Notes under the pieces: model-generated | What the model was told of the DNA's origin: nothing | Seen by the model: only the letters and a program-made list of their open reading frames with translations | Databases searched by the model: none | NCBI GenBank assembly: GCA_964016885.1 | Contig: OZ024745.1 | Span: 101,308,001 to 101,372,000 of the forward strand | Origin: Eledone cirrhosa | Lineage: Eukaryota | Direction: 5' to 3' | Length of the DNA stretch: 64,000 nt | Shown: piece after piece, positions 19,316-49,086 of the stretch | How the letters are laid out: every line of letters begins with the position of its first letter | Position numbering within the stretch: the stretch's first letter is position 1 | Made by a program: the position numbers and the translations under genes

Positions 19316-20980
19316 GTGTGCATTTATCGTAATAAATTATTATTTATTATATTATATTAAATCACTATATTAGTTCTACCTTCGAGGGAAGAATGGACTC
19401 TAAATAATGATTATATTATTGTACAATATATATATATATTTGCACAAACCATATATAGTGTGATTAAGTTATTATACATTATTAACATAGATGCAAAAAA
19501 GTAAATGCAGAGATATACCTAACTATTAATATGATTATGTTATTATACAATATAAACAAATTTGCAAAAACTACATATAGAGAGATATACTAAGTATTAA
19601 TGATAACGGTTATAATCTTAGATAATAGATTCAAACATGCATAACTTAAATACATACATATATATAAAAAAAATGTAAACGCGTGAATGATCAACAGTTC
19701 AAAATAATGTCCTTAAAAATTTACAGGTTAGATATTTAAACTATATTTAAAACAGATATAGAAAAATAAAGATAGAGAGATAAAGGTATGGATCAAAGTT
19801 AATAATATCCATAAAACCATATGTTATGTATATCAGCGTGCCAGCATGTTATTAAACAAATATCATTCATTCAAACGTTATTTCCTTTATAGATGGTTAT
19901 AAGATAAAGCAATATTAAAGTTTTATAAGCCTTTAAGGTTTTCAACTGTTGATGTACGTCTAAAAACCAAGTTTGGTTGCTTACTGTTTTTCCGTGATCT
20001 TATGGGAGGCTTGGAATGTAGACAAGGCTTTATGAAGGCTGTTTGAGAATAATTCACTTTTTTTGTTAATTAAGTTCTCATAACTACTAACAATCAAAAG
20101 GGTCTCCATTGTACAAAGCGCGCAGTTACTTGATATACTTGAGTTGCGGTAAACACTATTACGAAGTTTCGTCCAAAAGATGGAGTATTTTAAATTCTTA
20201 TCTTTTAATCTAACCACGGATGAAATTGATATCATACTAACAGCTAGAACAACTCTTATTAACTTCAACAATGAGTATTGGACCCGCTCAGATAGAAATA
20301 GAAACTTTGATATTACTATGGGGGCATCCGATTTTGCGCAAATCACATATCTTCTGGGAATTTTCATATTAAATATGATAAATAGAAAACTGCCGGAGAT
20401 TGCCGGTGGTTTATATAGGGACGACATTTTATTTACGGTGGTCAAACACAAAAATATTGAACTAAATAGAGTAAAGAAAAGTATAATAGAATTCTTTAAA
20501 ATGTATGACCTTAAGTTAGAAGTAGAAAATGGTACAAAAATAGTTATAAAATTAATATAAATAACCTGCAACTTTTAAAACCTAAAATTTTCATTCTTCA
20601 CCCTAAAATAACAAATTAAATATTTTGAAATTTAACCACTATGTCTATATGTGAAAGTTTTTGCATAAATTACTCCCCTTTATTTCTCCCTCTCTTTAAT
20701 TATCTATCAGTTGCTGTCTCAAGCCAATAACTTTAATAAAAGTATACCTCCAGAGACGTCTTCCTCTATAATCCTAATTTGTAGTATCCCAGATTTTAAA
20801 AACTCTATAACTGTTACATTAAGGCAATGTTTTTCTTACTCATACCTTCTCTATTGATTCTATTACGTTTTCGCATGTTCTTATTATTAGGGTATAAATG
20901 TTGAGTTTTCTCATAAGTTAATCACTACTTTGATTAAATCTTAACCATCTAACATCTCAGGGCATGTCATGTATCATTTT

Positions 20981-21809: not shown

Positions 21810-21854
21810 TTGCCCTGATGAGTCCTTATTAATGGGACGAAACATTGTAGGCTA
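21810..21854 (+). ncRNA. Canonical minimal type I hammerhead (family D) in a 210-bp element between (TA)n tracts
   Basis: GCC-CUGAUGA-GUCC uuauuaaug GGAC-GAAA-CAUUG-UA^-GGC-U-AAUAAA. Confidence 0.85.
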
Positions 21855-47573: not shown

Positions 47574-47693
<120 letters not shown>

Positions 47694-47717
47694 CATATAT
47701 ATAGATATATATACATA

Positions 47718-48270
47718 TGTATTAGAATTGGTGCTCTGAAATAGCGATATATATATATATGAATGTATATATAGTGTATTTTGCAATACACTGTATGCTT
47801 AATTAAAAGCATTTTGAAGACCTTATGCTGAAAATAGAAGTAAGTGACATTGTCACTACTTTAAAACAATAGCGTAAGGTCTTCAAAATGCTTTTAATTA
47901 AGCATACACTGTATTGCAAAATACACTATATACACATTCATATATACACCGCTATTTCAGAGCACCAATTCTAATTTTCAATTTTTGCTGGACCGGCAAC
48001 CGCTCTGTATAATCAGTTCCTGATTATTACTGGAATTCTATAAGAATCCAACATTCATAATTTTCGGCAAACAGGAGGAGTGCTGAGCTTTGATAAGTAC
48101 CAACAAGTACGAAACAGAGCTCTGTCAGCTTATCTCCCCTTATTTGCTGAAAATTGAAGTAAATGACATTGTCACTACTTTAAAACAATAGCGTAAGTCT
48201 TCAAAATGATTTTAATTAAGCATACAGTGTATTGCAAAATACACTATATATACATTCATATATATGTGTA
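47718..48270 (+). mobile_element. Retrozyme/PLE-like element: about 320-bp tandem unit plus inverted 5' arm, in (TA)n
   Basis: Direct repeat 47826-47945 / 48146-48265; 47721-47829 is the rc of 47871-47975. Confidence 0.8.
48059..48155 (+). ncRNA. Extended type I hammerhead with U3-A8 core
   Basis: UGAGCU-UUGAUAA-GUAC caacaa GUAC-GAAA-CAGAGCUCUG-UC^-AGCUUA; stem I extends via AGGaGGAG/CUCCCCU and AAUUUUCGGCAAA/UUUGCUGAAAAUU. Confidence 0.8.
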
Positions 48271-48284
48271 TATATATATATATC

Positions 48285-49086
48285 TCCTCTTCCGACCACC
48301 GCTTCTTGGATTACCCACACGCGTTTTGACTTCCAACCAAAATCTCCATACATCCGTGTAACTTACCACTTTTCAACCATCCTCTAACACCATCACCTAT
48401 ATAACTCACCCACACACACATCCCAAAACAAATTTTTTTATCCACACGCCACCCACACCCACAACACGCTTAAACCACACACACGTGCTTCCCACCACAT
48501 ATTTATACCCTCAGCCCCCTGATTCCTCTCCCCCCACCCCCTATCCACACACGCACAGACCCTCCGACACACAAAAACACCCCCCACACACACCTTCCTG
48601 AACATGCAACCCCGTTCTTCCCCCAACCCTCACTTTCACATACACACACACACACACACACGCACACCTAACCACACACACCACCTTCAGCCCTCCCCGC
48701 TCGGACACCCCGTCTCCCTCTCCCCACTCCACCCGCCTCCACCTCTACTCACCCCACACCCTTCCACCACCTGTTTACCCCCCTTTTAATTTCAGTTTAT
48801 TTTGATCATGCCTTTATTTTTAAATGTTCTCATTCCTTGTATTTTGATCAAGCTTTATTTTTATTTATTATTTATTATATTTTTGTCTTTATTTGTTAAT
48901 TTTTCATTCGCACCGTTTCCTTTCGCTATATGTCTCTCCACCACTCCCCTACACACCTTTTGAACTCTTACCTGAAGAAGGGCTTATGCCCGAAACGTCG
49001 TCCTCCACCTACCCCCCACTCTCCTGAGCGTGAATCTAATAAACATTTGTCGTACTGCCTCTCTGTTCTGTCCCTGTTCAATTTTT

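Follow-up and report, generated by a model that had tools for sequence, protein, structure and literature searches.

A type I hammerhead with a U3-A8 core pair in a non-LTR retrozyme family of Eledone cirrhosa, with an apparent single origin among C3-G8 relatives

The 64,000-nt stretch of Eledone cirrhosa DNA considered here, to which we refer as the window, contains an insertion built from parts of a single repeat: one full 319-bp unit, a 5'-truncated partial unit upstream of it, and an inverted arm that runs into a genomic (TA)n microsatellite (Table 1). The insertion holds one hammerhead motif, and no open frame of 150 aa or longer overlaps it. An earlier note on this DNA had described the motif as a hammerhead with a UUGAUAA core, intact stems II and III, and a long bulged stem I, and on direct reading the description agrees base for base; stem I, put there at about 25 bp, comprises 26 pairs (13+3+4+6) in the active fold.

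Table 1. Features of the insertion, in coordinates of the window
Feature	Position	Strand	Basis or remark
(TA)n microsatellite, target flanking the insertion	47574..47722	.	
Inverted arm: 3' part of the unit and ~26-nt tail joining genomic (TA)n	47721..47829	-	same tail end in other insertions
Upstream partial unit, 5'-truncated (unit positions 192-318), without hammerhead: partial tandem	47821..47946	+	93.8% identity to full unit
Full retrozyme unit, 319 bp, 3' end an internal (TA) tract	47947..48265	+	direct repeats at 318-319 spacing
Whole hammerhead domain, stem I of 26 bp with internal loop (UGC, 48081-48083, facing single U48133)	48059..48155	+	folding
Core box U3-U4-G5-A6-U7-A8-A9, U3-A8 replacing C3-G8 (U3 = 48090, A8 = 48095, A9 = 48096)	48090..48096	+	sequence; fixed among copies
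Stem II, 4 bp, G10.1-C11.1, 6-nt loop CAACAA (GUAC 48097-48100, GUAC 48107-48110)	48097..48110	+	sequence, HH9 alignment
GAAA box (48111-48114), 12-nt perfect palindrome (stem III 48115-48124; 12 nt with A15.1 and U16.1), and GUC (C17 = 48126); predicted cleavage after C48126	48111..48126	+	
Shorter TA tract	48266..48283		

Three helices surround the core and stem I is open-ended, which gives the motif a type I hammerhead topology; the residues of the core consensus, here taken from part of PMC7151607 (U4, G5, A6, A9, G12, A13, A14, A15.1-U16.1, and H17), are all present, and the Watson-Crick pair required between positions 3 and 8 is supplied by U3-A8. The helices measure 6 bp (proximal stem I), 4 bp (stem II), and 4 bp (stem III of the monomer), and the palindrome is predicted to pair either as stem III or as a duplex of two copies. 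The motif is not a chance structure, since its folding stability lies at z = -6.67 and none of 200 shuffles was equally stable. Loop II resembles the HH9 consensus CAAAAA, and the architecture for a putative contact with the stem I internal loop is in place: U48081 and U48133 are conserved in 194 and 196 of 202 aligned copies, respectively, and the other two loop bases vary. From the commonest letters of its clade the window copy differs in 6 of 226 columns, none of which falls in the core, stem II, stem III, or proximal stem I.

Scanned at Rfam gathering thresholds, the entire 64-kb window gave no match. The best E-value in a permissive Rfam scan of 701 bases is that of Hammerhead_HH9 (RF02275), which aligns to 48072-48148 (E 0.0012) with 24.5 bits, short of the gathering score of 52 bits, and this accounts for the empty standard scan. 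The expectation that CUGANGA-based searches would overlook the motif thus holds good, and extends to the Rfam threshold.

Other hammerhead-like sequences lie elsewhere in the window. Two related canonical motifs (CUGAUGA, with a GUCC/GGAC stem II) at 21815 (+) and 62253 (-) belong to another repeat family, and further cores occur at 48972 (+), 18037 (+), and 35054 (-), the first of which, ~700 bp from the U3-A8 motif, looks like a minimal Penelope-type motif ending in GUC.

The layout of the insertion recurs across the genome. Among 27 distinct U3-A8 insertions, sampled by exact pattern in chromosome order (30 loci, from which three duplicates were dropped), inverted arms are present in 19, a TA-rich flank in 22, and two same-strand motifs in 5, and by hand count 16 of 17 tail ends run into (TA)n, with a duplicate locus, an unrelated match, and a row wrongly labelled as an end set aside. 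The copies, which also wrap head-to-tail into themselves, are combinations of partial tandems, inverted arms, and a fixed tail joined to (TA)n. Insertions of Penelope-like elements are marked by partial tandems, an inverted 5' copy, a 30-40-bp tail, and a TA bias (PMC8557442, in part), and the tail has been attributed to internal initiation of reverse transcription (PMC11167929, in part). Non-LTR retrozymes, for their part, are defined by short, low-GC tandem units with a type I hammerhead (PMC7229834, in part); the present family has head-to-tail units within the range of 150-450 bp, each with a type I hammerhead, low in GC and without a protein-coding frame, and the cut-to-cut monomers of seven natural dimers measure 317-320 nt with 33-36% GC. 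To judge from these sequence-level tests, the motif fits a type I hammerhead and a non-LTR retrozyme, and the layout of the insertion reads as the signature of such a retrozyme moved by Penelope-like elements. A preprint that argues for a derivation of retrozymes from Penelope-like elements (10.64898/2026.07.22.740005) counts a locus as active when it holds two consecutive complete hammerheads; the window locus lacks such a pair and other loci of the family have one, and the measure concerns the activity of a locus rather than membership of the family. Contigs from three runs of one sample contain many variant copies and opposite-strand joints.

How firmly U3 and A8 are joined can be read from genomic counts, which derive from exact-pattern searches of the 3.0-Gb assembly and are lower bounds throughout. 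The 28-nt motif of core plus stem II has at least 157 exact matches (reversed control, 0), which rise to at least 164 when positions 3, 7, 8, and 9 are freed and to at least 177 when position 3 is Y, position 8 is R, and the loop has 6 nt; 99 of the 100 matches listed from these 177 carry U3-A8, one carries U3-G8, and none has C3. A pattern that covers all subfamilies gives at least 860 matches, and among the 100 of these that are listed a hand count finds 65 with C3-G8 and 29 with U3-A8, so that 94 have C-G or U-A at 3:8, the rest being 2 C3-A8, 2 G3-G8, 1 A3-G8, and 1 C3-C8, with no U3-G8. The core of U3-A8 copies varies less than the remainder (1.4% against 5.1%), a difference that we set aside as evidence because many copies were fetched by patterns containing the core. 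Divergence of copies from the commonest letters of their subfamily is ~4% in a sample biased towards close copies, and the lineage may accordingly no longer be active.

The wider family came to light through two relatives: a canonical core with the same stem II has one match genome-wide, which led to the C3-G8 sister subfamily C, and an 81% relative next to another locus carries CUGAGGA. The other subfamilies have C3-G8, and across subfamilies stem II occurs in four variants, all fully paired. In trees built without the core columns, the smallest clade that includes all 82 copies labelled U3-A8 in a set of 202 comprises 95 tips and no C3-G8 copy (local support 0.76), its remaining tips being 11 unlabelled and 2 decayed copies; the two U3-G8 copies of this tree sit inside the clade and represent later decay. 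An IQ-TREE analysis of 59 sequences, with at most eight per subfamily and the distant 310-bp family D (C3-G8) as root, arranges the subfamilies in the order B, B2, F, E, C, A0, A, A2, with the U3-A8 clade at UFBoot 99 and nested in a clade with subfamily C at UFBoot 100. Since family D is only ~55% identical over the region, the position of the root is weak; the nesting of the U3-A8 clade does not depend on it. The trees thus indicate that U3-A8 arose once, out of C3-G8 ancestors. Because U3 and A8 are fixed together and have this single origin, the outcome that the earlier note had named as contrary to its claim, a genome of mostly CUGAUGA copies with U3 and A8 arising independently, did not materialise. 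Its view of a rare, selected variant is sustained in that the structure has been kept by compensatory change, and has to be revised in that the variant is not isolated: a large retrozyme family includes it as one of several subfamilies.

The swap was followed by a lengthening of loop II from 5 to 6 nt (UFBoot 93) and, within the U3-A8 clade, by the replacement of a U-A pair of stem II with C-G in subfamily A2 (UFBoot 100); this compensatory change in stem II points to a ribozyme still under selection. Across eight subfamily representatives, both partners have changed in 10 of 35 pairs, and pairing holds in 93.6% of cells, a level reached in none of 500 shuffles and compared with 39-47% in slid controls; the sequences are related and the structure was chosen from the window copy, so we take this covariation as support and not as a probability. 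The covariation at 3:8 is likewise one evolutionary event, related copies not being independent.

Several features of the relatives deserve a separate record. In the C3-G8 subfamilies B, B2, E, and F (loci L107-L135 and L216-L231), A10.1-U11.1 stands in place of the usual G10.1-C11.1, and these are the commonest forms among the matches listed (100 of 860). Four copies of subfamily C lie ~44 kb apart on one strand (G000:C2:338330088-338463079), which suggests tandem segmental duplication. Family D, with its 310-bp unit (L166-L195, for example G000:C7:78839651-78844931 and G000:C4:302171626-302176171), lies on many chromosomes in head-to-tail arrays, which reach ~11 units in an arm and often consist of two inverted arms, and all 150 matches listed of 262 are 100% identical. 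In its hammerhead the core pair is C3-G8, stem II begins at its base with a U-U mismatch, the palindrome measures 6 nt, and the cut site reads GUA. By sequence family D appears to be expanding now, and it is the best candidate for a live circular RNA.

The core pair did not change alone, since on the branch on which U3-A8 appears the stem III loop also changed from AGAU to AGCU, which makes the palindrome of 12 nt perfect. Among the 100 matches listed of 249, 72 combine U3-A8 with AGCU, 1 combines U3-A8 with AGAU, 27 combine C3 with AGAU, and none combines C3 with AGCU; as this linkage stems from one event, the counts are not independent. The homoduplex of the perfect palindrome is computed at -20.1 kcal/mol, against -12.2 for the AGAU form of the C3-G8 subfamilies C, E, and F.

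Folding places the motif in a different light when it stands alone and when it stands in tandem. The minimum-energy fold of 48059-48155 is inactive, a point that the earlier note had missed: U3-U4-G5 (probability 0.998) and the adjacent strand of stem I are paired in it to the 5' arm of stem III. In the window copy the active fold sits 6.8 kcal/mol higher than the ensemble. For subfamily A, in which 47 of 62 copies were scored, the median gap is 5.2 kcal/mol; the medians for C, E, and F are 1.5-2.8 and those for B and B2 are 4.6-5.0, so that misfolding of the monomer is not peculiar to U3-A8. On these models the activity of the window motif as a single hammerhead is doubtful, with the reservation that tertiary contacts do not enter into the folding energies and could rescue the motif on its own. 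Seven natural tandem dimers were available among the loci examined (family D left out), and in all seven the double hammerhead lies closer to the ensemble than the single one (1.0-6.7 vs 3.1-19.3 kcal/mol above it). The circular monomers predicted from them are all highly structured (z -3.2 to -6.8 against 40 dinucleotide shuffles each; 57-65% paired), and in the one circle displayed in full the core is locked. As modelled, these dimer-favouring folds match the dimer model of hammerhead cleavage that is reviewed in PMC4209133 and PMC6765202 (both in part).

The helix that competes for the core allows a more specific conjecture. In silico, AGCU strengthens this rival core-to-stem III helix as well, and U3 weakens it. 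Restoring C3-G8 costs 3.0 kcal/mol in the window copy and 0.3-5.7 kcal/mol in the double hammerhead of all six dimers tested (of the seven, one with a 2-nt loop was ineligible), and AGCU raises the monomer barrier at five of the six dimer loci and lowers it at one. Since U3-A8 weakens the rival helix, the lineage could have adopted the perfect palindrome on that account, and the swap may have been adaptive, keeping the ribozyme off in monomer and circle and on in the tandem dimer. We hold this only as a tentative and rather doubtful proposal; it is post hoc, and the data do not fix the order of the U3-A8 and AGCU changes. If it is true, a catalytic core pair would have been retuned in nature to govern folding and not chemistry, with each step of the path preserved as subfamilies in one genome.

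Among known systems, natural U3-A8 cores and animal retrozymes are both established, and to specialists the motif is an ordinary one. A covariation of C3-G8 to U3-A8 in several natural examples was reported in 2011 in PMC3088659, which, in the part consulted, also cites earlier work for in vitro activity of U3-A8; about 1,300 U3-A8 matches are given for the minimal hammerheads of Schistosoma mansoni in part of PMC4209133, and positions 3 and 8 are described as rarely mutated in cricket satellite hammerheads in part of PMC2837043. The rare variant is consequently not a novelty in itself. The examples in the passages of PMC3088659 consulted are scattered, with neither a ladder within a genome nor a link to stem III. 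The hammerheads of the Cercyon Penelope-like elements of S. mansoni (PMC4209133, in part) share with the present family the core covariation, a high copy number, and a connection to Penelope. The Cercyon motifs are minimal (little or no stem III, 7-8-bp stem II) and heterogeneous there, whereas our family is canonical in its helix sizes, homogeneous, and embedded in a retrozyme unit with traceable C3-G8 ancestors; with 4 bp in stem III, 4 bp in stem II, and 26 bp in stem I, the window motif falls outside the minimal definition (absent or tiny stem III, 7-8-bp stem II, 4-5-bp stem I). The closest counterparts are the coral, mussel, and axolotl retrozymes (PMC7229834, in part), with which the family shares low-GC, non-coding tandem units of 150-450 bp with one canonical type I hammerhead each, a palindromic stem III, and a predicted highly self-paired circle. 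It departs from the metazoan retrozymes described in that part of the source in its U3-A8 core, which is not mentioned there, in its 12-nt perfect palindrome with a 4-bp monomer stem III, and in its insertions of mostly one or two units with inverted arms in (TA)n. With Penelope-like elements (PMC8557442 and PMC11167929, in part) it has in common partial tandems, a 5' inverted copy, a fixed tail, and (TA)n or AT-rich targets, and it differs from them in a unit without an RT or endonuclease frame. The likeness to Hammerhead_HH9 (RF02275) extends to the type I topology, the 6-bp proximal stem I, the bulged distal stem I, and the CAAxAA-like loop II. HH9 motifs are few, conserved copies in amniote introns, whereas the window motif belongs to a mobile repeat. 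Searches of open-access literature listings turned up neither a paper on this family nor one on a retrozyme lineage with U3-A8. What is new is the ladder from C3-G8 to U3-A8, traceable within one genome, and the arrival of the swap together with the perfect stem III palindrome.

Pieces of Penelope-like protein lie in the flanks of 17 of 200 loci and in the window, the latter including an RT fragment at 20153-20491; we take the fragments to be Penelope-like from RT and GIY-YIG words recognised by eye, and Pfam gave no match for any of the four that were searched. Junctions were examined at locus L061, where a 5'-truncated Penelope-like element (L061:3322-6090) is nested in the TA tract between two U3-A8 units. 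This locus was considered as a full autonomous element with the unit as its terminal repeat (pLTR) and rejected in favour of a probable nested insertion (11-12-nt junction duplication; unit at 1 of 20 ends), and the internal TA tract of the unit may itself be a target for the endonuclease of that element. The family to which this element belongs, abundant across the genome and likewise terminating in (TA)n, is no more than a candidate for the mobiliser; its Atlas look-alikes reach a score of 0.95 and carry GIY-YIG on 26-35% of members, but with a recognition of 2154, under the guide of 2300, they support the Penelope label weakly. Fragments of another Penelope-like family, distinct from the first and with a GIY-YIG-like region at the C-terminus, lie at L061:663-2230 (+) and L076:3-656 (-). 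In the one co-resident autonomous-type family examined, the unit does not flank a contiguous RT and GIY-YIG frame at several loci, and no autonomous element with ends homologous to the unit was found, so that we infer the mobilising partner.

Taken together, these observations lead us to regard it as probable, with moderate confidence, that the motif is the type I hammerhead of a 319-bp non-coding non-LTR retrozyme in which U3-A8 arose once from C3-G8, that it likely self-cleaves mainly as a double hammerhead in head-to-tail transcripts, and that the insertion of new copies of the repeat into (TA)n is likely the work of a Penelope-like enzyme. An insertion with two same-strand units would be transcribed, the two 12-nt palindromes would pair and the stem I strands swap, and cleavage after GUC would release a ~319-nt unit able to circularise, the core of the lone motif and of the circle being predicted to stay locked by pairing with stem III. 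A Penelope-like RT/GIY-YIG protein would then nick AT-rich DNA and begin reverse transcription from a fixed point within the RNA, ~170 nt 3' of the cut, an internal start that would produce the tail, the more-than-unit copies, and the 5' inversions. Barring pairing in trans, the window copy with its one motif is probably a daughter insertion that leads no further.

Three other accounts can be given of the same data. The single motif may be a fast, tertiary-stabilised hammerhead in which docking of loop II on the stem I internal loop beats the misfold, each single copy, that of the window included, cleaving by itself, as the earlier note had implied; the canonical helix sizes (6-bp proximal stem I, 4-bp stems II and III), the similarity of loop II to the HH9 consensus CAAAAA, the two nearly invariant U residues of the internal loop, and the cleavage of a monomeric coral retrozyme at ~0.8 per min (PMC7229834, in part) would suit it. 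We nevertheless judge it unlikely, given an active fold 6.8 kcal/mol above the ensemble, a median for subfamily A of 5.2 against 1.5-2.8 in C, E, and F, the free variation of two of the four internal-loop bases, and a palindrome perfected on the very branch that carries U3-A8.

It is similarly improbable, in our estimate, that the double change to U3-A8 was neutral or slightly deleterious and spread by hitchhiking in a master copy; on this account the Penelope-like enzyme initiates within RNA that is still uncut, and the repeat has no need of cleavage in order to spread. In vitro, mutating the hammerhead did not lower insertion by a purified Anolis Penelope-like element (PMC11167929, in part), the genomic 3' ends lie at the tail and not at the cut site, and U3-A8 is a minority (29 vs 65 C3-G8 among the 100 matches listed of 860); set against this, of the 64 states possible at positions 3, 7, and 8 the one fixed keeps the 3:8 pair, no single-change lineage spread (2 C3-A8 and 0 U3-G8 in the same list), and compensation in stem II went on after the swap. 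That the unit is the pLTR of an autonomous Penelope-like element, and its copies 5'-truncated remnants rather than a self-standing retrozyme, seems very improbable, although the insertions have a Penelope-type architecture and at L061 two units flank a 2.2 kb Penelope-like 3' region with a GIY-YIG-type frame: the L061 element has its own C3-G8 minimal hammerhead, a unit directly follows only 1 of 20 of its 3' ends, the 11-12-nt duplication at the junctions is what nesting in the TA tract of the unit would be expected to leave, and the units wrap head-to-tail into themselves.

For the study of retrozymes, one practical consequence is that CUGANGA descriptors and Rfam thresholds undercount them: about 3 in 10 exact-pattern members of this family are missed by the descriptor, and the window copy is missed by Rfam. 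Beyond this, the family constitutes a natural experiment of about eight subfamilies that stand a few paired changes apart and include a switch of the 3:8 core pair, and because this ladder of matched sequences lies within one genome, it makes two open questions directly testable, namely how a catalytic pair can come to fixation in a new form that takes two steps to reach, and whether the spread of Penelope-dependent repeats is influenced by hammerhead cleavage.
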